A DNA stretch of 64,000 nt from Oikopleura dioica (lineage: Eukaryota > Animalia > Chordata): contig OU015567.1 of the NCBI GenBank assembly GCA_907165135.1, positions 8,494,001 to 8,558,000 of the forward strand, in the 5' to 3' direction. Below, in pieces: positions 4,974 through 41,207 of this stretch (position 1 is its first letter; each line of letters starts with the position of its first letter). The notes beneath the pieces were generated by a model. It was not told where the DNA came from. It worked only from the letters and a program-made list of their open reading frames with translations, and made no database searches. The translations under genes and the position numbers were made by a program.

Positions 4974-7900
4974 TGAAGGCGTCGTGAATGTTCTTTTTAA
5001 TTTGATTAAGTTGCTGTGTATAATGATTGTTCCCAAGTAAGCTTCTGAATATGTTCTGAAATTTCGATTTCCAATCTCAAGGCATGTCAATCCTGTACTT
5101 ATTTCCATAATATATATTTAAAATCTTTTCAAATCAACTGGCGCTTTTCTACTTTATCGCGAGAGGAATTCAGCTTCATACAGTTCTTATCGAATCAGAT
5201 ACAGTATAAAAAGCAGGTCATAAGGATAGTCAAAGTTGAAGTGCTGACTTGAGGGGCATCGAGGTCATTCAATATGAAGGGTCGACTTTCAGGAATAAGA
5301 TGGAAGCTGACAGTGACCTGGCGTGACTGGGACGACTTCCCAAAGTCCTCCAACAAGGCCGACATTGAAGCATCATCAATACCGTATTGAAAATAGGAAA
5401 GAGATCCTATCTGCCACGTGGTGGAAACAGTGCATGTTGTTAACCGATAGACGGAGACGTAGAGAAACAAATAAATTAATAATAAATCAACGAGGAGGAG
5501 TATAAACTTGGCGTCGTGTGAATAAACGCGTTGATTTTTTAAAAAAGAAAAGAATGAAGAAATATTTTGTATTTGTTGCTTTGGCTATTTCGAGTTTAAC
5601 ACGCACAGATGCGCACAGAACTACGAATAATATGGACATCAGGAGAGGATAGTCGGTAGAGTCCTTGGAGTTTCTTGAAATCAAGGAAGAGTGCTCTGAT
5701 TATCCAAAATAAGAGGAAGTTTCATGCAAGAATTAGGCAGTGATTCCAAAACATTTGAACCCGATTCAAGTGAGAAACAAGCAAAATAAGCATTCAATCA
5801 TGTATTCAATCTACTAGATATTATGGACATGGTCAGCCGTATTTTGTCATTTGATAACCCAGATTTGGAATCCTCAAAAAGGCCTCGATCCTTCAGATTC
5901 GAACGATAATGCAACTCCTGTATCTGATCCCCTCTCACTTTTCAATGTTCTTCTTGGTTCCAAATACATGTGACAATCGTTTTTTCCTGAGCAATAAATA
6001 CTTCGCTGTTTCCGGATTGATGCATCTTTGCCTTCTTTTTTCAGAAAAGTGGCGAGAAAGTGTTTGGTTTTGAAACCAAGTCCCTAATTTGCGCTAATAG
6101 TCCTCAATTTGCAGAACCGTCAGAACTCTGTTCTGGTCGATTAGGCGGCGAGTGTCGGTAAGCGCTCACTTCTAGGCTAGAATAACAGACCGATTTGGCA
6201 CACACTGCAGCGGTGCATTTGTTGGAGTGTTCAGGCAAGATAAACATCAGTGCACCGCTAATTTGCTTTTGATATTAACACTGGCGCTTGAAGCCGTTCT
6301 GAGATTCACGCTGGGAAAGATGGATCATTAATCCCTTTGATATACATTCAATACATAAAATTATGTTTACTCATCTCTCTTTGCATGTGGCCTGCAGAAA
6401 GTCATCTTGTTCGATTTTGAAAATCGCCCTGTTTTCGCAACTTTAATCCAATTCAGCCGCACATGAGCTGTAATACGGCTCAGAAGGAGTATGAATCCTG
6501 TTGTCCCTAATTTCAAATTTGCGATGGCTCAAAATTACCACGGTTGAGTCTTTTCTCGCTCTGACGATTATTTCGTTAGTGTTTTGGATTAGCCCCCGTT
6601 ACCCGTCATTATGGCGATTTAGCTCATTAGGCACCCAGGGAAGTTATTTCTATTCGAGCAAAGTGTGAGGGGAGCGCGATTAGTCTCCTGCTGCTTGGCG
6701 ACAATACAGAATTAATATCACGTGGAACATACTTTTTGACATGGAACTTTTTCCAATTTCATAGTTTGAGTTGGTTTTAAGGGTGTTCTTAGCTTTTTTT
6801 CATAAAAAAGTCTAAAATAAATCCCGGTTTTTGAATCATGAATTCTACGGACCAAAAATTAGGGTTCATGTTGAGTTTTAAAAGTTCAGTTTTTTTGGAA
6901 TATGCGATGCTCATTTCTATCGAAACCGCCAGGTAGTTTCAGGTGGTAAAGAGGAAGTGTTTAGCAGCTGGGCGGGTGTTTAACATTGTCCACAACTCGA
7001 CTAGTCTATTATATCTTCCTTTACAAAGGCGGCGTCGAGTATCTGGATAATAGTTGAGGCGTTTCCGATTTGGATTAAGATTTTCGCAGAGCCCTGTGTA
7101 GTTGGCAGCCCTTGCGCTCAGCCACTTCCGCCAGTAAGGGTCCAAAACCATTTGGCTAAATTCGAAAGACTCCTTTTGTCCACAGCTGAAACGTTTTTGT
7201 TGGCGACTTCCGATGATTACTTTTTCATTTGAAAATGGTGCTAGTTGATGTCATTTTCTCATCGTTAACTTTTGTGACGAAGATGTTTGGTTTGTGTATT
7301 TGTGTCTGTATAAAATGAACATCTTAACCCATCTAGTATGACTGTATATCTTTGACTATCGCACACTTATAATTTCATGGAGCTGACCATGAATTCAATA
7401 AAATCCCCCGTGGATTTGATTTTCTTTGTATATTTTCGCCGGGTCAAGGGGTTCTCAAAGGGCCATTCTGTAAAGCTACTGTAGCAGGTTCGATCGTTGA
7501 ACATGTATTGTTCGGAAAAGCGGTTGACGAATCGAAGATGACAGGAGCTGTCGGAATGAGTTAGCCATTGTACAAGTTAGCATTGTTAGTTATAGCTGGA
7601 ACCAATGGCCGATTTTATGCACGAAATACTAAATAACTTTCAATCACTTCACCTGGCTAAGTTTGGCATTGTACGGCCTCGCAGGGTGCTAATCGTAGAA
7701 AATAACAGAAAAGAAAAGAACCTCCTTGAATAGCCCAGTTGAAAACAAATCCGCTAAAGGAGACACACTGACACTTTTCGAATTACTAATTGGACTACTG
7801 TATTATCAAGTACTGTGTTGATAAATGGCCCTGAGAAAAAGAAGCGAGCAAGTTAGATAAACTCACTTCCGCTCAGCAAGCTTCAAAGGATTACCGGAAC

Positions 7901-8760
7901 ATGCATCATTTGTCAAGAGGAGTGAAAAATTAGGGCTCACTGGGAATTAGGAATTGTGAAAAATTAGCAAAAAATGCAGCGCTAGAATCAGATAAGGCGG
8001 CACTCTTCCCACAGCTTAGCTCGGGAACAGTGAAAGCGGCCGACCATAAATCCGTTTTGTTTACTGCAAGTGCAATTTTATGGGACTTTACATAACTACT
8101 TTTTTTTGCCTTTGAGATTTGTATTTGAAAACAAATTGAGAATGAAGTTTTTTATCAGGCTTATCAATAATTGCCTATTATCATGTAAGACTCAAATGAA
8201 AGCTATTAAGAGTAAAAAATTATTGAATAAATATTAATTTTCAAATTGTCGATTTTCATAATTTTGGTTCCTGTAACTCACGATTCGCGAAAAATTTATT
8301 TCGAGGAAGAAAAATGGCCAGGTGATTTGAGTATCGACCTTCCTTCCCACTGAGCGCATGGCGAAATTCGCGTGTAACTGTAATGGCAGGTGCAGCTGGA
8401 TCAATCTCTGGCTGCGAATTCCGAAAATTAGCAGCTATCTTATGAAATCGGAATTCCACTCAATGCAACGTCGTACATGGCGATTTTTGAAATACTGTTT
8501 CTCGTGAACTACGTCTCTCTCCTCTTCCTTGGCGATATGGATAATCGTGTCGATCGCGTCCTGAATTCAGAGACACTGGCGATTTTGGTTTCAAAATTAG
8601 CAGATCAATCCGGTGACACACCGCAAAAGTGCTCTTATCAAAGCCGGAAGAGACGTCACAGTTATAGCCGCTATACTTTTGCACATCTCGTCGTTTGCGG
8701 CCTCCTTGGAATTTTCAAGGCGAGATAGTTGCATGAACACTTCGCAAAATTTTCAGTTAA

Positions 8761-29236: not shown

Positions 29237-29276
29237 ATATACCCACTGTGCTCGAATAGAGGGCGCTGTCATACAG

Positions 29277-29491
29277 TGTAGTGGTGATACCAATTAGAGG
29301 ATCATTAACTATCTAATCCACGCATTCCCTCTCCCAACTCCCGCTGTGCCACCAACCATCTTACCGACTGTATCTCCCGGCTCATCCCTTTGCACAAGTT
29401 CACAGCCTATATAAACTGACCTCCAGTCCGAATAAACTATCAGTCTTCTCTACTTTCGAGAGTTCTCTTTCCTCAATTAGTTCCCACTATA
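29277..29491 (+). repeat. 5' LTR (TG...TA)
   Basis: Identical by eye to 38568-38782; TATATAAA at 29408 and AATAAA at 29431. Confidence 0.95.
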
Positions 29492-29682
29492 TTTTGGTGA
29501 CTGAACTCTTCGAAACCTACAAGCTCCCGAACCGCTCGACATTTCTCTACACGAGATTTTTAATCAAGAGATACATCATCAAATATTCTAGAGATCAAAG
29601 AGATATCAGGAAAGGGGAATTTACATTTAGAAACTAATTTCTGTCGCCTATTCTGACTGATCATAGGCACAGATTTATCATT

Positions 29683-31131
29683 ATGAAACCTAAAAGCATA
29701 TTAAAGAAAACGAAAATAACGGAAGATAATTTTCCAAAATCGATCCTACTAGGATTAGGCACGGGGGTTAGGACCGAGATTCTCGCGCGCCTTGTTAGAC
29801 AATATGGAAGTTTATTTAAATATGAATCGACTACTACTAAAGAAGAAATGGTCACTTTTTTGAAAACAAAAGGCTCGTCTTTTTCGGCGCTCGTCTGTGA
29901 CCTTGAGGATGAGAAGGACGATCAACTGTATGTTTTTGTCATCCCTATCGCTATGAACGGAAGCGAATCGAATCAACCGATTCCGGCTTATAAAACATTC
30001 ATTACAAATCTGAAACGGAGAACAGATGAATACCTTTCTAAATATTCAAATAGACTTTCTGTTGAAACCCTTAAAAGTAGCGCTTTCATTAAAAACAAGG
30101 ACGCGAACGTCAAGGAACTTATTAAAGGGTTAATTGAGACGCCCGCTACTTTTGAACATTGTTGCGTTCATCAAGTCCCACTGGCTGATGCAGCGCTTTC
30201 TAGTGAATCTGCCGACGATACGGATAGTGAACCTTTCGATAGACCCCGCTCATGCCCAACGTCATCTTCTGATGACCCTCTTCGTAAGATGGCTTCAGCA
30301 TTCGAAAGAATGACTATAAGTAATTATGACAAAGCAGCAAATACTTTCGGAAAAAATATTGATTTACCGAAGTTCAATTACACCGACAGTAGTGACGTTT
30401 GGGTTAATAAGGCTACCACGTTACTTAGATTAGGCGGCACTCGATCTGAAAGAGTCATGGTCTCGTATTTGACTTCTAAGTTACCCGAGGATATCCAAGA
30501 TCTGGTCATACAAGAACTAAATTCACAAACTATCATTACGATAGGAGTCTTCGCTGACATTTTACGTAAATGTACTAAGGTCGATGATGGGGTTATGGCC
30601 AGGACGCTTCAGGAACTTATTTTCGATCCGGCTAAATTTTCCAATTTCCGCTTATTTTACTATCGAATCCGCTCGCTTGTCACAAATTCATACTCTGGAA
30701 TGGATGAGGATAATATTAATCGGATCGCAATTAAGGAATTCCGTTTGAAGGTCCCAAAGGTAGTAGCTAACGATCCGGTTTTTAATACTACTTACAATGA
30801 ATCCCCACTGGATATCGTAGAATTGGCCCAGAACATTTATGACCGTAGTAAAAAGGGACGGACAGAAACCCTCGATCATATCCCTAATCCCAAAACGGCC
30901 CCAAGAGGTAAATATGGTGCTTCACGTGAAACCAGATCTTGCCATTTTTGTAAGAAACAAGGTCATCTTATCAAGGATTGCCGGACATTAAAATACAAAA
31001 TGAGCAATTCCCAGGGAAAGGCCCAACGCTCTGAAAAATCGGATTCACCAAAGAAAATCATTTGTAAGCGGTGCGGCAAACCTGGCCACAAGTCGCCCGA
31101 GTGCAGGGCCCCCTTCCCAATGAGCAAGTAA
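29683..31131 (+). CDS. gag: Gag with two CCHC zinc knuckles
   Basis: CHFCKKQGHLIKDC and CKRCGKPGHKSPEC near the C-terminus; first ORF after the PBS. Confidence 0.93.
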   Translation: MKPKSILKKTKITEDNFPKSILLGLGTGVRTEILARLVRQYGSLFKYESTTTKEEMVTFLKTKGSSFSALVCDLEDEKDDQLYVFVIPIAMNGSESNQPIPAYKTFITNLKRRTDEYLSKYSNRLSVETLKSSAFIKNKDANVKELIKGLIETPATFEHCCVHQVPLADAALSSESADDTDSEPFDRPRSCPTSSSDDPLRKMASAFERMTISNYDKAANTFGKNIDLPKFNYTDSSDVWVNKATTLLRLGGTRSERVMVSYLTSKLPEDIQDLVIQELNSQTIITIGVFADILRKCTKVDDGVMARTLQELIFDPAKFSNFRLFYYRIRSLVTNSYSGMDEDNINRIAIKEFRLKVPKVVANDPVFNTTYNESPLDIVELAQNIYDRSKKGRTETLDHIPNPKTAPRGKYGASRETRSCHFCKKQGHLIKDCRTLKYKMSNSQGKAQRSEKSDSPKKIICKRCGKPGHKSPECRAPFPMSK

Positions 31132-31135
31132 ATTG

Positions 31136-34100
31136 ATGGCACTTCCGGAGCTTAGTTTTGATCTTATACAATATTCACCTAAATACCTATCTCTACCTGT
31201 ACAAAACTGTCTCTTAGACAGCGGAGCAACTCAAAATTATATTTCGAGGAAAATTTTACCAGATGAGATAAATCTAGATCGACTTACGAATCCTAAGCAA
31301 CTTACGAACGCGTTTCACGATGATCTTTCGATAATAAAATATACTGTCACTCTTAACATAAAGCTAGATTCTAACCTTGAGATTCCAAATATTACTTTCC
31401 ATGTGCTGGATAATATAATTTCTTACGAAGCAATCTTAGGATATTCATTCATAAAGTACCACCATGTAGACTTTAAGACACCCGCCATTCTAAACACTAT
31501 TTTTGAAAAGAAGGATATTGAAAATAACTTTACATTTAATGAATATATTGAAGGTAACTACTCAGATGAGGTAACTTTCCGACTGGTTCATAATTTATGT
31601 TTACCACCTCTGTCGGAAGAATGGGTGAAGGTGAAGCCCTCTAAAAAGTTAGATAAAACGCATCGATATAAGATAATGGCCACAGAAGAATTAGAGAAAA
31701 TGCAAGTTAATATAATGAACAATTTTGTGACAGCTAATAACCTTTGTTTACGGCTAAAGAATTACGGGCCCGATTTTGTCACGTTTTTATCGGGTGATAA
31801 TATCGCTATCAAAGCGCTAGATATAGATATTATTACGAGTTTCGAACACCTTAATTTCTTACTTGCTTCAAGCAAACTTCCGGAGTTCGAGCGCCACATC
31901 CATGAAAAAGAACTAAAAGAATGGAAGTCTCAGAGAGATGACCTCGTTGCAAAAACTTCAATTGACGGCGAACTCCGAAGGGTTCTTGAAGGTGTCCCTC
32001 TTGATTTTGTTGACGAACTCAGAACAAATTTAACAAAAGTTAGTTGGAATTTCTCTCGACACCTTGATGATGCTGGAATGAACAGTCACTACGTGGCTGA
32101 GTTGATATTAAATGATTCTGATCCGCCAACATTTTCGCCCGCTTATAAACCTGATAATACGATTCTTTGCCAAGTGGAAGAAAGAATGAAAAATTTAACA
32201 AAAAATCATATACTCGAGAAAACATGCTCTCCCTGGAATTCGCCCGCTTTATGGGTTAAAAAGAAAGACTCATCATTAAGACTCGTGAACAACTACAGCT
32301 CCGGTGGTAATAAAAGCCTCAATTCACGTTTACTTGTTCCAAAATACCCTTGTCTGCCCATACGCTCCGTACTCAGTTTAATTAGTTCTAATATTTCAAA
32401 AATCCACAATCTCTACCCAAATCGCCCAATTCGGTTTTCGAATTTGGATCTCAAAAACGGATATTTCTCAGTCGGGTTGAGGGAAAGTGACAGAGACTAC
32501 ACCTCGTTTTTATTTTCACATGCCCAGTACCGTTATAAACGCCTCGCTCAGGGGTTATCATCAGCGCCCTCTGTTTTTTCGTATTTTATGTCTCTTGTCA
32601 CCTCAGACATTGAAGGTAACGGTGATAAATTTTTCGTTCTAACATATTTAGATGATATAATCATCCTTTCCGCTGATATACACCATAATTTAGCAATAAA
32701 AAGAGTCTTAGAAAGACTTGTTCTTCATAATTTGGTCCTGTCGCTAAAAAAGTGCGAATTTTTCAAAGAGTCGGTCCTCTTCCTAGGTTTTCACATAACA
32801 GATAAAAATATTCTTCCCGATAAAAATAAGATACAAGGCATTCTCGATATTTCTTACCCTACTACACTTAAAGCTGCCCAAAAAACTCTAGGATTGTTCA
32901 ATTTTTATTCTCGCCAAATTCGTAACATGTCTTCTGACCTAAGTCCCTTAAGCAAAGCGATTGGTCTCGGTAAGGACTACGTTCTTACGAATGAAATAAA
33001 ATTAGCTATCGACAAAACCAAAGAAAATATTAAAAAAGGCACTTCTACTGCTCATCTAGAATACCCAGATAATGATTCTACCCGAGTGCTCTTTGTCGCT
33101 TGCGACACAAGTCTCAAAGCCACCGGTGCTATAATTGGAAATTGCGATCTAATAAACGACAGTATTTCGAACGTCTCTGTCGCAGCTTACTCAAGTAAAC
33201 GCCTTACTGAGCAAGAAAGTTTTTTGAGCTCGCGAGGCAGGGAGCTCGTGGGCTTGTCCACAGCTCTTCAGAATTTTAAAGACCTCCTTCCGAAAGACAG
33301 GCGTTTCGTCTGTTTTTGCGACCATAAATCTCTCGCCCAAATTTTTAATTCGGTTAATATGAAAGGTTCTGGATCTACACGTGTTCGACTTGCCTATTCA
33401 AGGGTTCTTGAGTACCCACTTATGGAAGTTCGCTTCCTTCGTTCAGATCATAATTTAATAGAAATAGCCGACACTTTATCTCGCCTCGATACTGTTGATT
33501 CAGAACCTCTTGATGTAACAATATTTCACCCACGTAATTACAAATCAGCTAATGAAGAGTCACTTAACAACGTAAAACTTCAATTCGCTAAACCGAAAAT
33601 TGACATTTCCGTCATTGTTGACGAGCAAAAAGCTGACGCTGAGTACAGTAAAATTAGAGATTCTCTAGAATCCGTTAATCCTAGTGCTAAAAATTCGGCG
33701 AAATACAGGTTATCGAATGATATTTTGTACCGAGCCGTTGGTAATTCCAAGAGATGGTTAATTGTTGTTCCACAAAAGTGCTCGCGTCAGCTCGTTGAGT
33801 ACTTTCATATCGTAACAGGCCACAGTGGCCGTGACTCCCTTAGTCTGAGGCTGAAGAAAGAACCACTTTTTATCCACAATAGAACAGGCCTAATTGCAGA
33901 TGTCATAAAAGGTTGTCTTTTATGCCACTTGCATCTACCCGAAAGGTTTTCAAAAAATGTTGAGGAGAGTCGAAAAATTGTTCCCGCTCTAACACCATAT
34001 TCTAAGATCTTCTTCGACTGTTTTGATGTTGTCCGCGAAGGCCGTACAGCCGTTTTTCTTTCATTCTTATGCGGATTTAGCAACAGAATTTCAGTCCGAA

Positions 34101-34978
34101 GAATACGTTCCAAAGCTAGCAAAGATATAGTCCCTGTAATGATGTGTCTACTCGTAGAATTCGGAACCTCAGGTCGGACCACGTGTACTAGCGATAACGG
34201 CAGTGAAAACTTGTCTGGTTCGATGCGCGTAGCTCTCGATAAGCTAAATTTATATCATACGCAAATTTCAGTAGCTAATTCGCGTGCGAATCGCGTAGAG
34301 CGCGCACATCGTTCACTAAGAAGTTTTTTGAGAACATGCGATTTTAGATTTCATGAAATTGACCATGTGGTACAACTATCTGCCGGAATGTACAATAATA
34401 AGCCGATGGCATCCTTAGGGAATCGTTCACCCAATCAAATCGCTCTAAATATCTCGCCGCCGCAAATTTTCGACCTCTACGAGTTGACTCAGGATTTAGA
34501 AGAAAATAAAATAGATATGGATGTAGCTGAATATCTCGTTCATTTTTCGGACATGCAGCGAGAAGTAGCCAAAGAAAAATATGATAATTACTGTATTGCT
34601 GACGGCTCACCAGAAATCCAACTAGAGCTCGATGATTTAGTTTTGATTAAACCCACCTCAATCGAATTAGGACATACTCGCCATAATACAGGCCCGTATC
34701 GGGTCGTTAAAATTTTGCAATTCGGATCTTATCAACTACAACATGTTCTTACCGGCCATCGCACCAAACGTAATCGTAGACATTTGCTAAGGATCAAGCT
34801 TGACGAAGTTGACATGAAAACACTAATGAATAAAGGTCTCTTTATTGAAAACGGCTATCTTAAAAACAATGTAGAAAACCCCCTAAAGGAAATTGCATCT
34901 TCGCCACTTGACACCGGGAATTTGAAGATCGATTCTACTCCGCACGTCCCAAAGTACAATTTACGGTCTCGAAAATGA
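31136..34978 (+). CDS. pol: Pol: aspartic protease, dUTPase-like spacer, reverse transcriptase, RNase H, integrase (gypsy order)
   Basis: LLDSGA; LDLKNGYF and YLDD; ACDTS...ELVG...CDH; HIVTGH...CLLC, FFDCFD...SDNG...RVERAH; GPY motif. Confidence 0.97.
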   Translation: MALPELSFDLIQYSPKYLSLPVQNCLLDSGATQNYISRKILPDEINLDRLTNPKQLTNAFHDDLSIIKYTVTLNIKLDSNLEIPNITFHVLDNIISYEAILGYSFIKYHHVDFKTPAILNTIFEKKDIENNFTFNEYIEGNYSDEVTFRLVHNLCLPPLSEEWVKVKPSKKLDKTHRYKIMATEELEKMQVNIMNNFVTANNLCLRLKNYGPDFVTFLSGDNIAIKALDIDIITSFEHLNFLLASSKLPEFERHIHEKELKEWKSQRDDLVAKTSIDGELRRVLEGVPLDFVDELRTNLTKVSWNFSRHLDDAGMNSHYVAELILNDSDPPTFSPAYKPDNTILCQVEERMKNLTKNHILEKTCSPWNSPALWVKKKDSSLRLVNNYSSGGNKSLNSRLLVPKYPCLPIRSVLSLISSNISKIHNLYPNRPIRFSNLDLKNGYFSVGLRESDRDYTSFLFSHAQYRYKRLAQGLSSAPSVFSYFMSLVTSDIEGNGDKFFVLTYLDDIIILSADIHHNLAIKRVLERLVLHNLVLSLKKCEFFKESVLFLGFHITDKNILPDKNKIQGILDISYPTTLKAAQKTLGLFNFYSRQIRNMSSDLSPLSKAIGLGKDYVLTNEIKLAIDKTKENIKKGTSTAHLEYPDNDSTRVLFVACDTSLKATGAIIGNCDLINDSISNVSVAAYSSKRLTEQESFLSSRGRELVGLSTALQNFKDLLPKDRRFVCFCDHKSLAQIFNSVNMKGSGSTRVRLAYSRVLEYPLMEVRFLRSDHNLIEIADTLSRLDTVDSEPLDVTIFHPRNYKSANEESLNNVKLQFAKPKIDISVIVDEQKADAEYSKIRDSLESVNPSAKNSAKYRLSNDILYRAVGNSKRWLIVVPQKCSRQLVEYFHIVTGHSGRDSLSLRLKKEPLFIHNRTGLIADVIKGCLLCHLHLPERFSKNVEESRKIVPALTPYSKIFFDCFDVVREGRTAVFLSFLCGFSNRISVRRIRSKASKDIVPVMMCLLVEFGTSGRTTCTSDNGSENLSGSMRVALDKLNLYHTQISVANSRANRVERAHRSLRSFLRTCDFRFHEIDHVVQLSAGMYNNKPMASLGNRSPNQIALNISPPQIFDLYELTQDLEENKIDMDVAEYLVHFSDMQREVAKEKYDNYCIADGSPEIQLELDDLVLIKPTSIELGHTRHNTGPYRVVKILQFGSYQLQHVLTGHRTKRNRRHLLRIKLDEVDMKTLMNKGLFIENGYLKNNVENPLKEIASSPLDTGNLKIDSTPHVPKYNLRSRK

Positions 34979-37251
34979 GGCTGTTTCTAGCGTTACTAAA
35001 TTCTCTAGGGTTAGTTTTAGCCAACACTTATTTTCTTTCAAATGATACAATAGACAGCTACTTGGTTTCTGATGTAACCGAGGCTAACTTAGCTCTAAAA
35101 ATGAGAAGCATTGTCATAAATGATAAAATTAACCTACAAAACTGTTTTTCGACCAGAACCAACTTAACGGAAGTTGCCATAGACCGGTTCAATAAACTCA
35201 CTGCGGATTGGACGCAAACTCAACCGCCGCCACTTGCGCCTGGTAAATTCGAGTTAATTCAAGGAATTCTAGCTACGTCTCCCCGTATTGAGGAGGTTAA
35301 TTTTCGAGATTCTAATGATACTGTTTTTAAAATGGGTGGAGGCAACGAGCGTAGAAATAACCTTCAAGGGAGAGATACCGATACTATTGAAATAAAGGAT
35401 TCATCAATTCTAGATAAAATGACGGATAGAGACCCCGACACTGTACTAAAACTAGGTTCTGGTTGTCATAAACGAGCTGGTTGGAACTTTTTTCAGTACA
35501 CGTTTGTTGTACAAGAGCATCCTAACTTCGTTATGGTCCAACTAGAAAAACAGGAAAATCGTTTCGGGGAAATGAAATTAATCACGCCCGATGGAGACAA
35601 ATTGTCACTACGTGAAATTTCCGTAGAAGAAAATGAGGAATATTTGTTTCTTGGTGCGCCTGTTCTCCAACCTATGGATATGAGTAAATTGTCGAAAAAT
35701 TATACGCTTAGCTTTTATTTATATACTTCTCCAGGCCATGAGGAAACAACTATTTTGATAGACAATCGAGAAACGCATACTGATAAAAATTGTGATGATT
35801 TCGGAATCATCGAAGTCTACCCCCTTATGGTTCAGGATTCGAGAATCTTGCACCGACAAAGAAGGCAATTTGGGGAAATAGTAGTTCCTTTAGTGGTTGC
35901 CGGACTAATGGGAGGTGAAGCAGTAGGATTAGGATATGAACACCATAGAGTTAATACTATAAAATCTGAAATCAAGGAAACCGATATAGATAGTTACAAT
36001 TTTGATGATGAGGCCGCAAAGGATATTGCGAATCTTAAAGTAAGCGTAGAACACGAAGAAAGTATGATAAAAACACTTCTTAAAAGTGAATGTCGTGACG
36101 AGAGAAATCTTGAAACGAAAATTTTCGAAACCTCCCTCATCCAACACTGGACTCTTTTCAGGGACAGTGTGGAAGATGTCATCGCTAGTCTTGTTTCTAA
36201 ATCACCGACATCGAAAGCTGCGGACCTCATCTCGAAAATTTGTACTAACCAAAACGGACTCGACCTGCCATGCCGCGATTTCTATAGATACCGAAATTTT
36301 CACTTTTCAGGCTTGACAGTCGAGTACGAACCGCATCAATTTCCGTCACTCATCATACATGTAGCGTACCAACTTCCTAAATTTAAGCCTTTCTCCAATA
36401 GTCTTTTGACATACAGTGCTCCAGTACCACTTAAATCTAATACTAAATCAAATTCTTATCTCTATGCTAACTACGATCTTCCTGAATCCATCAGTATTTT
36501 GGACGGGTACGCTTTTGATACTAGTTCTTGTCTCTTAGACCAATTTTCAAAGTCACGTTTTTGCTCTGAAAGAGATATCTACAAAGCTAATAACATTTGC
36601 GCTAATTCTATTGTATCCGGTAATTCTCTGACTAACTGTCACTCTTCATTCTATCACAGCTCGCAGCAATGCCAAATAATGCCCTATCCCAATCTTTTCC
36701 TGCTTAGCCACCACTCTGGATATAGAATTTTCAACCTAACGGACGGTAATGACATTTATCCGCAGATTGACTCGGATAATCCATTAACGCCCAATATCAC
36801 CTCCATCGCTAGAACTGAACATCCAATTCACATTGTCTGTGATAATTTCGCCTTTACCTCTGCATCAAAAAGTAATACCGAAGTAACTTCCTTCGTAAAC
36901 CTAAAAGACCTCGATTTTGAACCACTGTACAATCCAATCGATTTACAATCTGTTTATAATTCAATAGACGATTCCCACTTAAATGATATTAATTTACCAG
37001 ATCTTCAAAACAAAGCTAACAAATTTCGCTCTCTCCTCGGAAACACTTCTACCAGCGCTAAAGAATTCTCCCTTCTACTAACAATCTCAATTATTGGCTT
37101 AGTTATAATAATCACACTTTCGACAATTATCTATTGCTTATGTAAAAGGTTATTTAAACCAAATCCTGTAATTATAAATAATTCTGCTGACAGACCAACA
37201 ACTATTCCAACGCCTTTCGTTCGACGTCGATTTACTGACACATCTGTATAA
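34975..37251 (+). CDS. env: Env-like class I fusion glycoprotein
   Basis: Signal peptide MRLFLALLNSLGLVLA; furin site RQRR (35854-35865) followed by hydrophobic Gly-rich QFGEIVVPLVVAGLMGGEAVGLG; heptad-like region; Cys-rich region; C-terminal TM FSLLLTISIIGLVIIITLSTIIYCLC. Confidence 0.9.
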   Translation: MRLFLALLNSLGLVLANTYFLSNDTIDSYLVSDVTEANLALKMRSIVINDKINLQNCFSTRTNLTEVAIDRFNKLTADWTQTQPPPLAPGKFELIQGILATSPRIEEVNFRDSNDTVFKMGGGNERRNNLQGRDTDTIEIKDSSILDKMTDRDPDTVLKLGSGCHKRAGWNFFQYTFVVQEHPNFVMVQLEKQENRFGEMKLITPDGDKLSLREISVEENEEYLFLGAPVLQPMDMSKLSKNYTLSFYLYTSPGHEETTILIDNRETHTDKNCDDFGIIEVYPLMVQDSRILHRQRRQFGEIVVPLVVAGLMGGEAVGLGYEHHRVNTIKSEIKETDIDSYNFDDEAAKDIANLKVSVEHEESMIKTLLKSECRDERNLETKIFETSLIQHWTLFRDSVEDVIASLVSKSPTSKAADLISKICTNQNGLDLPCRDFYRYRNFHFSGLTVEYEPHQFPSLIIHVAYQLPKFKPFSNSLLTYSAPVPLKSNTKSNSYLYANYDLPESISILDGYAFDTSSCLLDQFSKSRFCSERDIYKANNICANSIVSGNSLTNCHSSFYHSSQQCQIMPYPNLFLLSHHSGYRIFNLTDGNDIYPQIDSDNPLTPNITSIARTEHPIHIVCDNFAFTSASKSNTEVTSFVNLKDLDFEPLYNPIDLQSVYNSIDDSHLNDINLPDLQNKANKFRSLLGNTSTSAKEFSLLLTISIIGLVIIITLSTIIYCLCKRLFKPNPVIINNSADRPTTIPTPFVRRRFTDTSV

Positions 37252-37374
37252 AGCAAAAGATGGCCTTAAAAGCCCAAAATCCGAAAATCTCTGAAAGTTG
37301 ATTCATAAAAATTCAAAATCAAAAAATCAAAAAAATGAACTTCTAGCTAGATTTTTCTTTGCTTGTTTACTCTG

Positions 37375-37620
37375 AAACCCTTATTTCCGCTCACGTGATC
37401 GCTACCTTGGTCACTTCTTTCTTATTTTTACCATGCTTACACCCTTAATTCGCTCTCATGACTTTTTGAAAAATTTTCTTTTTCGCTGAAATCATAGTGA
37501 TACCCTTATTTCAATCAAAGTGGTTATATTAAATCACCTCTTTTCCTGCATACACCCTTATTTCGCTCAATGACTTTGCATTGAAAGTCACCTTTTTATT
37601 ATGCTGATACCCTTAAAACA
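37375..37620 (+). repeat. Five degenerate 52-64-bp units sharing ACCCTTA(T/A)TT(CGCTC), several followed by a hairpin and a pyrimidine tract
   Basis: ACCCTTA at 37377, 37441, 37502, 37554 and 37609; perfect hairpin TGACTTT-GCATTG-AAAGTCA at 37571-37590. Confidence 0.7.
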
Positions 37621-37888
37621 CACATTCGCTTCGATTATATTTACTCGCTCACTGATTCTATGACTAAAAATATAAATGCTTATTAAAAATTTTAAAATAA
37701 TTAAAAGAAAAAAATAATGTTTAGCTCTAGAATTTCTGTTTTCCACATATTATTTACTATTTGACAGTACTACTATGCTCCTTTCATGCTTCAACCCTTA
37801 AGGGTCTACCCTTCGTTAAAAATTTTTCTTTCAACAACTTTCAATTTCTAAAACTACTTTTATTCGACTGGTCATTGGTCAGAACAAG

Positions 37889-38434
37889 TTAAAAGTACAC
37901 AACCAAAACTTTCGTAACGATGACAGGGAATGGAACCGTAGGGTTGAATGTCTTCACGCGGCACCATGGCATTGATCCTGGCCTTCTTCCATGCGATCGA
38001 TAGTCGACGCCTTCGTAATGCAACGTGCGGCACGCTCGATCCACCCGAAGTCCGTTTCGTACCGCGGGGGTCCAACAAAACATTGGCTTACCAACAAGAA
38101 ATTGAATCATCGGCTGATCCTGATTCGCACCCGCGCAAAACCGGAACATTTGTACCAAATCAATTCCAGGAATACAAATCCCAAACCAACCTCTATCCGA
38201 CGCCAAAGAAAAATCATCTGCTGCTAACCGTTGAATCCAGTTCCAATAAAATCGCATGGAAATATTCAGTTCGGTCGGGTCACGGTTCAAAAACTGGCGT
38301 CTCATGTCATTCTCTACGTCTTCTGGATCAGTTTCTTCGTCACTATGGTCGCTCAATTGATCGTGTCTCTCTGGAATGTCATCCCCGAAGACGGACCAAT
38401 CAGACTCAGAGTCGGAAGTCTCAATCAGCGTCAT
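37889..38434 (-). CDS. Putative antisense accessory protein of the LTR element (181 aa from ATG 38434): acidic N-terminus, W/C/R-rich C-terminal domain
   Basis: Long uninterrupted ORF between env and the PPT with protein-like compositional zoning; no recognisable family. Confidence 0.55.
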   Translation of the reverse strand: MTLIETSDSESDWSVFGDDIPERHDQLSDHSDEETDPEDVENDMRRQFLNRDPTELNISMRFYWNWIQRLAADDFSLASDRGWFGICIPGIDLVQMFRFCAGANQDQPMIQFLVGKPMFCWTPAVRNGLRVDRACRTLHYEGVDYRSHGRRPGSMPWCRVKTFNPTVPFPVIVTKVLVVYF

Positions 38435-38567
38435 TGCGAAAAAACGAACTTTTATTTTTCTCAAAAAGAAATTTTTGTTCTGATTCTGTGCCAAGCTTGC
38501 TTCTAATTATAAGTACCATTTTGTGTATTCTGATAATTACCCGCTTTTTTCCCGTCGGGGGGGTGGA

Positions 38568-38782
38568 TGTAGTGGTGATACCAATTAGAGGATCATTAAC
38601 TATCTAATCCACGCATTCCCTCTCCCAACTCCCGCTGTGCCACCAACCATCTTACCGACTGTATCTCCCGGCTCATCCCTTTGCACAAGTTCACAGCCTA
38701 TATAAACTGACCTCCAGTCCGAATAAACTATCAGTCTTCTCTACTTTCGAGAGTTCTCTTTCCTCAATTAGTTCCCACTATA
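38568..38782 (+). repeat. 3' LTR
   Basis: Identical to the 5' LTR; preceded by GGGGGGGTGGA and followed by TSD ACAG. Confidence 0.95.
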
Positions 38783-39282
38783 ACAGCATCAGCCTGGTTA
38801 GGGACCCAGCTGGTCAAAACTCGCTATCCCGCTGAGACTCAAAGTTTCCTGCGTTTTTTTGATAAGAATCTTGCTTAGTAAGCATCCTTCTCTCTTGAAA
38901 ATCGTATATTTGACCTGGTCCAGATCCTGACAGGACGAAACTACACTGTACTCCAGGACCATATCACTTGCTTATCAGCAATTAAATTTAAATTAAACAG
39001 CATAAATTAACCATAAAACAAGAAACATTTCAGATCTATCAAAAACATAATGCAATAAGCGCTTCAAATGCAGATCAAGTGATGATAATTGATTGTCGAG
39101 GCCGTTAAATTTTTATGAAGCGTAAGAATTGATGGCGGCCGTTTTTGGCGTTGTCGTTGCCGGCGGGGCTCTTCAGAATTGCTAGCTTTTCCAGAGATGC
39201 TCATTATTTCTGCATCGCTCCAAATTTGTCCGAAAATGGGTTCCTAAAAATATTTCAAGGAGAAAAAAGAGCACATGAGAAA

Positions 39283-41207
39283 ATGGAGGCGATCATCGTC
39301 GGATTGGGGGTGAACTACGCGGCCTCACTTGCAATCACTTTTACAAACAAGGTTTGAATAATAGTTTTTTCGGGAATTCTAAAAAAAATTTATCAGTGGA
39401 TTCTCACAAATCTGCCTCTTCCATCGGTCGCACTTGTTTGTTATCACTTTGCATGCACGTTTATTGCCCTGTATGCTCTGCAGCTTCTCGGCGTTTTTGC
39501 CCCAAAGCATGTGCCCGCGAAAAAGATTCTTCCACTCTCTCTCACTTTCTGTGGCTCAGTGGTCCTCACAAATTTATCCCTCAAATACAACACGATCGGC
39601 ACTTATCAAGGTACCAGCAACAATTCTGGCCGGTTTATGCCATTTTTCAGTCCTAAAATGCCTCGCCGATCCGCTTTTCATCGTGATCCAAACAGTTTTC
39701 TACGAAAAGCGATTTTCTCGTGCAATAAAGCTAACCATGGTGCCCATGATCGCTGGAATTGTCATTAATTCCGCGAACGATTTGATGTTCAGCAAAAATG
39801 GAACTATCGCGGCTCTGGCAGCAGTGCTGGTCACTTCTGTCTACACTGTGGTAGGTCCTGAAATCTTCTTCAGATTCTAAGTCATTTTAGTGGGTTCGCG
39901 AAAAACAAGAAGAACTCAATTTGACCCCAATGCAAATACTCTATTATCAAGCGCCGCAGAGCTGTATTCTCCTTCTCCCTGTTCTTTTTCTCGAGCTGGT
40001 TCTTTCTGGCTCTGAAATTTCCCTCTCGACCTTTATCCCAAGCGACGATTTAACAAAAGGAATGATGTTGGTAAACGGCCTTTCCGCCTTCACGGTCAAC
40101 CTTTTGACGTACTGGATTATCCGTCACACATCAGGTCTGCTTCCCACGTTTTCTATCTTCTTCAACCCCTTTTTCAAGTGATAACTTACGCAACATTTGG
40201 AAAATTAAAACTCTGCACAACCATGCTCATTGGCTTCATCAAGTTCAACGACCCGCTAGATACCTACCAGGTAAGCTCGTCTTTCCCAGAGTTAGAAATT
40301 TTCGTGACTCGCGAGCGGCTCTCTTGAGAGCGAGCGAGCACGAGCATGATGCTCTTCGTGCTCCCGAGCGCATTTATTTCAGCGTTCGCGCTCTTTGCGC
40401 TCGCGAGCACATTTCATTTCGCGCTCTCGCTCTCCTGGCTCCCGAGCACTGGTCAAATTTTGCTCTCGCTCGATTGGCTCCCGAGCTGAAAAATCTGACT
40501 CGCGAGCAGCTTTCAAGAACCTAAAATGATTCGACGACCCCGTAACTAATTCCAAATGAGTCCCTCTCTCAGAAGTTAGCACTTCGCGGTGGGCATCTTT
40601 TATCTGTTTACTCTCGGCTTTTCGCGTTCCGCTGCCGAGATAACTGATCTAATGAAGCTTCCAGAAAACGGAAAAACGAAAAATCGATCCACGAGAGAAA
40701 TTTATCTATCAAAGTGAATAATAATGCAAAAAATTGTTCTTTTAATTTTGCTCGCGAGCCGCTCGTGAGTCAATTCCATGGCGAGCACGAGAGCAGCCGC
40801 TCCCGCTCGTCTAGCTCCCGAGCATTGCCGACAAATGCGCTCGTGCTCTCCGCGCTCGCGAGCGGTTTCAAATTTGGGCTCGCGCTCTTTTGGCTCTCGA
40901 GCATATTCATTTTCATGCTCCCGCTCCCCGGCTCTCAGAGCAATAATATATTTTCGCTCTCGCTCTTTGCGCTCGCGAGCATTTGCGAGCATTTCAAACT
41001 CTGGTCTTTCCGCCGAGAGTAATTAATTATTACCAATTAAATAGTAAAATACCTTGCATCATAATTAATAATCATCAACGTTTTAAGCTGTTCGGGATAA
41101 TTCTCACCATGCTCGGCGTTTTTCTCTACACACTGCTCAAGCTGAATATATTCAACCACTTCAAAATGAGTTACTCGAAAATGATCAATTCCAATCACCA
41201 AGTCTGA
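39283..41207 (+). CDS. SLC35E3: Solute carrier family 35 member E3-like nucleotide-sugar transporter, multi-exon
   Basis: FTNKW, FCGSVVLTNLSLKYNTIGTYQ, QILYYQAP, VNLLTYWII, TFGKLKLC, FNDPL; the last exon LFGIILTMLGVFLYT follows a ~0.8-kb intron. Confidence 0.9.
40307..40990. repeat. Two blocks (40307-40510, 40750-40990) of a ~39-bp minisatellite with palindromic core GCTC(G/C)CGAGC in the last SLC35E3 intron
   Basis: Cores at 40360, 40399, 40438, 40477 and at 40814, 40854, 40893, 40931, 40971. Confidence 0.8.

Follow-up and report, generated by a model that had tools for sequence, protein, structure and literature searches.

Here, we describe a 181-aa open reading frame (ORF; P0001) on the minus strand between the env-like gene and the 3′ long terminal repeat (LTR) of an env-bearing Ty3/gypsy element of Oikopleura dioica, which is very likely to be a real gene. 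Our preferred reading, to which we assign a probability of roughly 0.4, is that it is an accessory gene driven by a small promoter of its own, placed immediately interior to the polypurine tract (PPT), and that its soluble product would bind and weaken a host factor of silencing or restriction. The DNA analyzed, hereafter the window, comprises 64,000 nucleotides (positions 8,494,001 to 8,558,000 of contig OU015567.1, assembly GCA_907165135.1), and unless a locus is named all coordinates refer to it.

The element is intact, extends from 29277 to 38782, belongs to the Metaviridae and shows the PR-RT-RH-IN order in pol. For comparison, 4 Pol relatives were obtained among 7994 candidates scored, and their alignment retrieved 29 metagenome loci (L numbers), drawn from 37 of 189 matching stretches; loci that were too short, too distant or broken were left unused. 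The parts of the element are as follows.

29273–29276, plus strand: left copy of the 4-bp target-site duplication (TSD; right copy at 38783–38786), from comparison of the flanks
29277–29491, plus strand: 5′ LTR, 215 nt, 100% identical to the 3′ LTR
29495–29507, plus strand: primer-binding-site-like stretch, 3′ end approximate; the same TGG-starting motif is present in L001, L005, L007, L010, L013 and L015
29683–31131, plus strand: gag, 482 aa, with CCHC knuckles (Pfam zf-CCHC)
31136–34978, plus strand: pol, 1280 aa from its own ATG (Pfam protease, RT, RNase H and integrase)
34975–37251, plus strand: env-like ORF, 758 aa, with a hydrophobic N-terminus, an RQRR furin-type site and a C-terminal hydrophobic segment
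37252–37888, no strand: AT-rich spacer, 31% GC, from base composition
37889–38434, minus strand: putative accessory ORF in antisense, running from the ATG at 38434 to the stop at 37889 (181 aa), on a TpA-poor island of 48% GC
37948–38607, plus strand: overlapping 219-aa ORF, absent from the initial annotation and likely a by-product
38557–38567, plus strand: PPT, from sequence
38568–38782, plus strand: 3′ LTR, 215 nt, 100% identical to the 5′ LTR

The identical LTRs, the TSD, gag, pol and the env-like third ORF bear out the env-bearing gypsy setting proposed in the initial annotation. When checked for the features of a fusion glycoprotein, the env-like product showed 14 cysteines besides its furin-type site and hydrophobic ends; Pfam and PDB sequence searches with it gave no match and a word search no homolog, and pol and env had no match among viral and prokaryote contigs. 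Both LTRs end in TA (29490–29491 and 38781–38782) rather than the usual CA, despite the clean TSD. Pol has its own methionine right after the gag stop, kept in all four full-length Pols of the alignment, and the env ATG at 34975 overlaps the pol stop at 34976–34978, an arrangement that suggests separate initiation or stop-restart, rather than frameshifting, for pol and env.

The gag-pol-env layout, near-identical LTRs and 4-bp TSD are shared with the Tor elements, as described in the available text of Henriet et al. 2015 (PMC4402516). The nearest Pols are 51–53% identical, and the putative membership in Tor was judged from published descriptions of the family. The Env lacks the N-[L/V]-G motif of Tor3b/Tor4b and the Tor4b-type space between pol and env is absent; the subgroup is possibly Tor3a-like. 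Downstream of the element, at 39288–40300 on the plus strand, lies a neighboring host gene with GT-AG introns of about 40 nt (read by eye), which we take to be probably an SLC35-type transporter. In four of six RNA runs, reads of the same species label are less than 95% alike over this gene, most less than 90%, in line with diverged populations (data set X10 gave none), and host DNA at 40350–40984 carries a repeat with a 39-nt period.

The antisense ORF is intact and has the acidic N-terminus first reported for it; the measured gap between its ATG and the 3′ LTR is 133 nt, in agreement with the earlier figure of ~130 bp. Dinucleotide shuffling seldom produced a minus-strand ATG ORF of this length (≥181 aa): the whole 3′ region gave one in 2 of 5000 trials, the GC patch in 0 of 5000 and segment-wise shuffling in 3 of 5000; on either strand, the three schemes gave 10, 9 and 33 per 5000. 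Antisense ATG ORFs within the coding regions of three elements are no longer than 78–87 aa.

A counterpart is present in L003, whose Pol is 47% and Env 30–31% identical to those of the window element, with four-fold sites identical at 53 of 193 positions in pol and 20 of 70 in env, that is, saturated. In L003, the env stop and an AT-rich spacer are followed by a 50% GC island, which carries in the same slot a minus-strand ORF of 178 aa whose start lies 189 nt inward of the LTR; such an ORF appeared in 1 of 5000 shuffles. The post-env interval is visible in two env-bearing loci, and the antisense ORF is found in one of them (L003, not L006). In a quick-mode Pol tree of 14 rows, the L003 group is nearest to the window by path, with a clade joining the two unresolved.

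Base composition sets the ORF apart. Its island is flanked by stretches of 31% and 36% GC, and at the ATG the GC content steps from 0.50 to 0.27 in the window and from 0.43 to 0.20 in L003. The observed/expected ratio of junction TpA is 0.56 for the window ORF and 0.38 for the L003 ORF, as against 0.91–1.05 for gag, pol and env of the window; other cargo genes in the relatives give 0.51–0.58. The pol and env of L003 are also somewhat TpA-poor (0.66 and 0.79), which weakens TpA depletion as a signal of capture.

The same region bears on whether the minus-strand frame is a chance opening, or the shadow of the 219-aa plus-strand ORF as the real gene. The plus frame is open across the overlap beyond what synonymous resampling yields (P 0.004), the same phase is stop-poor in L003 (3 stops versus 9.1 expected, P 0.0006), and by a crude amino-acid-composition score the minus frame did not stand out from the other five; AlphaFold gave no fold for the minus-strand product (see below). 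Against this, the plus phase does contain those three stops in L003, and neither L003 plus ORF, with boundaries cut by us, was matched in the protein collection. Junction TpA depletion reduces stops in the plus phase, and the RING gene of L006, described below, is depleted likewise (0.56). The GC island, moreover, ends at the minus-strand ATG, and the plus ORF continues through AT-rich DNA into the LTR. We consider this explanation distinctly improbable: since the plus phase is interrupted in L003 and TpA depletion largely accounts for its openness, the 219-aa ORF is likely a by-product.

The case for a promoter belonging to the gene itself comes from short motifs around the ORF, all predicted from sequence.

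37859–37864, minus strand: AATAAA, predicted antisense poly(A) signal, 24 nt after the ORF stop (L003 counterpart 30 nt after)
38455–38467, minus strand: leader element of 13 nt, shared unchanged with L003; the window and the 29 loci together contain just 2 copies, and the mean expected by chance in the window is 0.07
38481–38483, minus strand: TCA initiator-like site, predicted antisense start, from the motif
38504–38511, minus strand: TATA-like box, 30 nt before the initiator A (29 nt in L003 and L001)
38517–38519, minus strand: out-of-frame upstream ATG, with a 32-codon frame that extends past the ORF start

Three elements, those of the window, L003 and L001, have the TATA-like/TCA pair in the stretch from the PPT to the ORF; in L001, which is permuted, no more than ~180 nt upstream of the PPT can be seen. 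The preferred TATA position in O. dioica is 28–31 bp upstream, according to the available part of PMC6389100. The 13-mer stands 33 nt (window) and 30 nt (L003) ahead of the ATG; the exact string is absent from L001, whose contig ends without an ATG. Backgrounds for these motif tests, all of them post hoc, were as follows: among 4382 TCA sites of AT-rich DNA, 114 have the TATA-to-TCA spacing; a shared 13-nt string was reached in 0 of 20,000 spacer-window pairs and in 4 and 3 of 3029 AT-rich windows; and AATAAA is present in 5% and 11% of spacer windows. The 13-mer was also considered as a trans-splice acceptor; it holds AG followed by A, and the AG is missing at that place in L001.

The upstream ATGs all precede the predicted start, the one in the window sitting between the PPT and the TATA-like box. 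Because its out-of-frame reading overlaps the true start, an RNA begun in the LTR would be expected to translate the ORF poorly. An internal promoter is thus more likely than one in the LTR. The initial annotation had proposed a gene driven by the 3′ LTR after the manner of HTLV-1 HBZ. HBZ has a bZIP domain, and its acidic N-terminus is an activation domain; HIV-1 ASP overlaps env. HBZ, APH-2 and ASP are, like the window ORF, antisense genes near the 3′ LTR of env-bearing retroelements, and their promoters are described in the available sections of PMC10186651 as TATA-less and inside the LTR, whereas the window sequence favors an internal start. Given the TATA-like/TCA pair in three elements, the overlapping upstream ATG, the TATA-less LTR promoter of HBZ and the missing bZIP, the LTR-driven arrangement is not favored, and the likeness to HBZ is one of position.

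Sequence searches with P0001 were blank throughout, in keeping with the earlier remark that no homolog was recognizable. A word-index search yielded 7 candidates, none at E 0.01; comparison with 1.84 billion representatives gave none at E 0.001; the ESM Atlas, PHROGs and NCBIfam, as well as metagenome and viral contigs, produced no match; no Pfam family was hit at E 0.1, bZIP and TRP28 (PF04195) included; and the best PDB sequence match had E 0.12. The L003 protein (P0033) was likewise blank in the Atlas, NCBIfam, the PDB and viral contigs, with best E values of 0.25 in Pfam, where TRP28 was absent, and 0.13 in PHROGs. Single-sequence AlphaFold models had no usable fold (pLDDT 35 for P0001 and 33 for the L003 protein), and Rfam gave only a sub-threshold snoRNA match (25.7 versus 50 bits).

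Nor were the two proteins detectably similar to each other: BLASTP between them gave E 5.5, shuffle Z scores ranged from −0.4 to 1.8, and a profile of five L003-family proteins did not match P0001, although it reported 723 of 1000 shuffles. Their only common traits are size, a tail that is acidic and rich in Ser, a low share of Lys and a high share of aromatic residues. The net charge is −14 over the first 40 aa of P0001 and −6 over the first 20 aa of the L003 protein, and the scarcity of Lys is weak (3 versus 5.6 and 2 versus 4.2 expected). Neither shows a signal peptide-like start or a strong hydrophobic segment (maximal KD19 1.42 and 0.95), and no clear basic cluster was found. The compact domain rich in W, C, H and R that had been described for P0001 can be retained only as a modest enrichment (W6, C5, H4, R16), and no metal-binding family matched. 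Two histories would account for this: divergence at a faster rate than env, or two separate captures that came under one promoter.

Protein-level constraint can be assessed in the L003 family. All five records of its protein cluster are 178 aa long, including CBY42236.1, an “unnamed protein product [Oikopleura dioica]” that is a gene model and not proof of expression. Their 15 substitutions, at 14 columns, have a mean BLOSUM score of +0.6, versus −0.5 to −0.6 for neutral single-base changes (P 0.003–0.005, for protein records pre-selected as called genes at ≥90% identity); the comparison value for an env pair is +0.08. Because the two proteins are not detectably related, selection is demonstrated in this way for the L003 family and not for the window ORF.

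In the window family, the ORF is covered without substitution by contigs of X3 and X4 (four of seven data sets compared, among the matches listed), and an X6 contig over 37824–38442 has, among the matches listed, no substitution and one 1-nt gap at an unlisted place. These spanning copies are near-identical in env too and are thus uninformative on selection. Also among the matches listed, X3 and X4 have contigs ~87–89% alike in env, the alignment of contigs of similar depth breaks off at 37871 and 37853, shortly before the ORF is reached, depth is flat across the ORF, and at an 80% threshold only the near-identical family covers it. From the diverged env contigs and the alignments that end just before the ORF, we infer a sister subfamily in which the ORF region is less than 80% alike or different.

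Taken with the positional conservation in L003 and the common cis signals, the conservative substitutions of the L003 family and the host-like TpA depletion support the suggestion in the initial annotation of an accessory or captured gene. How far capture alone would suffice is a separate matter. The ORF might be a passenger, host- or virus-derived and expressed but useless to the element, with the window and L003 genes taken up separately under one promoter. The host-like TpA depletion, the dissimilarity of the two proteins and the varied cargo of the relatives suit such a history; the search of 1.84 billion representatives, in which no cellular homolog appeared, speaks against it, as do the conservative substitutions and the retention of cis signals across saturated divergence, and we regard it as quite improbable.

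That these promoter- and poly(A)-like signals are kept better than the protein raises another alternative, in which the antisense RNA rather than a protein matters, limiting the element by base-pairing with genomic and env RNAs in their 3′ UTR or by interfering with the 3′ LTR. Precedents are the non-coding antisense RNAs of micropia (PMC7264820, available part) and the often nuclear retroviral antisense RNAs (PMC10186651, available part). The equal ORF length, the acidic tail and the protein-level constraint would be left unexplained, and among the readings weighed here we rate this one lowest.

Other elements retrieved through Pol carry various genes in the corresponding 3′ slot. In L006 (Pol 38%), a sense RING-H2 gene occupies the interval behind env (7735–8199, plus strand; E 3e-14), at a distance of 0.5 kb; its N-terminus is rich in Cys, and 63 nt upstream it has a TATA box of its own. 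Neither a PPT nor an LTR was found downstream of this gene, which is thus only a putative part of the element. L015 (4213–5004, plus strand), and L016 in the same way, has an uninterrupted TFIIB-like ORF (Pfam TFIIB, E 8e-40, plus a zinc ribbon) immediately ahead of the PPT (5079); it belongs to a cluster of 18 members, and the L015 locus has no intact env ORF. For an LTR retrotransposon to carry a basal transcription factor may be more surprising than the antisense ORF itself. The 3′ region of L015/L016 also contains a 78-nt tandem array (L015, 2264–2652), as in Retand elements. L010 (86–1105, plus strand) has a 339-aa ORF without known family just before its PPT (1317), filed as O. dioica CBY15375.1, and a 66% relative lies directly after pol in L013 (5580–6608); we read this ORF as another cargo gene. 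In L004 (4306–4737), L007 (6396–6824) and L009 (4118–4405), ORFs of 95–143 aa with one hydrophobic segment stand in place of env, reminiscent, as a lead only, of the small membrane proteins of env-less infectious elements; no minus-strand ATG ORF above 56 aa was found in the available parts of these three loci.

Among these, the TFIIB-like gene in the slot before the PPT bears on the possibility that the ORF is a real antisense gene whose protein regulates transcription or RNA export of its own element, in the manner of HBZ, Tas, Grande gene23 or Rev, the acidic tail being an activation domain. The acidic and aromatic N-terminal tail of both proteins is compatible with that role, and GENE23 of Grande is nuclear with its own promoter (PMC7264820, available part). 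bZIP, zinc-finger and other DNA- or RNA-binding families were unmatched, however, the proteins have no clear basic cluster, and divergence faster than env would suit a conflict with the host better. A regulator is the most serious of the competing explanations, and we consider it rather unlikely.

We return to the preferred reading, an accessory gene directed against the host, which can be laid out in four steps of differing strength. Translation of the ORF is, in our judgment, highly probable. Given translation, RNA polymerase II would fairly probably start at the TCA, which the TATA-like box precedes by 30 nt and which lies ~47 nt ahead of the ATG; the RNA would end past the AATAAA at 37859–37864, giving an mRNA of ~0.6 kb. 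Such an mRNA would overlap only the 3′ UTR of the genomic and env RNAs and would be independent of the 5′ LTR; its product would be a soluble protein of ~21 kDa. The gene would have arrived as cargo in a slot filled otherwise in relatives, and would since evolve faster than env or be swapped. In the last and weakest step, the acidic, aromatic, Ser-rich tail and the compact C-terminal domain may work as retroviral accessory proteins do, serving as an adaptor on a factor of host defence in those somatic cells that express Tor elements. The fast turnover, the independence from the 5′ LTR and the kinds of cargo in relatives suggest such an adaptor, directed against silencing or restriction by the host; nothing in the analysis points to a particular host partner.

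The closest known arrangement is found in other gypsy elements rather than in retroviruses. The antisense ORF had been called unusual for Metaviridae, which overstates the case, as pol-to-3′ LTR antisense ORFs are common in plant Retand, Grande and RIRE2 elements and in fungal Boty, according to the available parts of PMC7264820 and PMC11963269. In maize Grande (gene23), rice RIRE2, Silene Retand (TRP28) and fungal Boty, the antisense ORF lies between the coding genes and the 3′ LTR, as in the window (PMC7264820, PMC11963269, same parts). Since an internal promoter is more likely, the window ORF is more like Grande gene23 than HBZ; the Grande ORF has its own upstream promoter (PMC7264820, in the text available), whereas the internal promoter of the window is predicted from motifs alone. 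The window differs from these antisense ORFs of the 3′ region (aORF-3R) in its animal host, the presence of env, a short (1.3 kb) 3′ region and a compact predicted TATA/Inr unit, and its ORF, unlike those of Retand and Grande, has no TRP28 or other Pfam domain.

Within animals, the ORF3s of bdelloid LTR retrotransposons offer the nearest likeness to the relatives of the window element, being varied, family-specific cargo in the 3′ slot of Ty3/gypsy elements; those ORF3s encode env, GDSL, DEDDy, CC or TM products in place of env, typically from spliced messages, whereas the window ORF is antisense and additional to env (PMC5408684, available part). Tor3b and Tor4b use an internal env promoter (PMC4402516, available text). 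No antisense or fourth gene is described in the available parts of the Tor literature (PMC4402516 and the eLife survey PMC13524379). Our literature search found no report of an antisense ORF in an env-bearing animal element, and Volff 2004 or the supplement of Henriet et al. may show the ORF.

More speculatively, and with less probability than the preferred reading, env-bearing tunicate Ty3/gypsy elements may be “complex” retroelements with a conserved antisense cassette (TATA, initiator, leader and poly(A) signal) inside the PPT, loaded with unrelated, homolog-less host-antagonist genes that are swapped, as their sisters load TFIIB-like or RING E3 genes; we consider this possible though unlikely. 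If true, it would be an invertebrate parallel to retroviral accessory genes and possibly a source of new protein folds. Complex vertebrate retroviruses are known to carry antisense accessory genes, as are gypsy elements of plants and fungi, and what the genes do in gypsy elements is still a question. The window element, young, env-bearing and hosted by a tractable chordate, offers a compact version that makes this function testable, and reporter injection and in situ methods exist for Oikopleura (PMC4402516, available text). At least one of these genes, CBY42236.1, stands in the records as a host gene without a name, and the antisense gene may show how Tor elements persist in a genome purged of most transposons.
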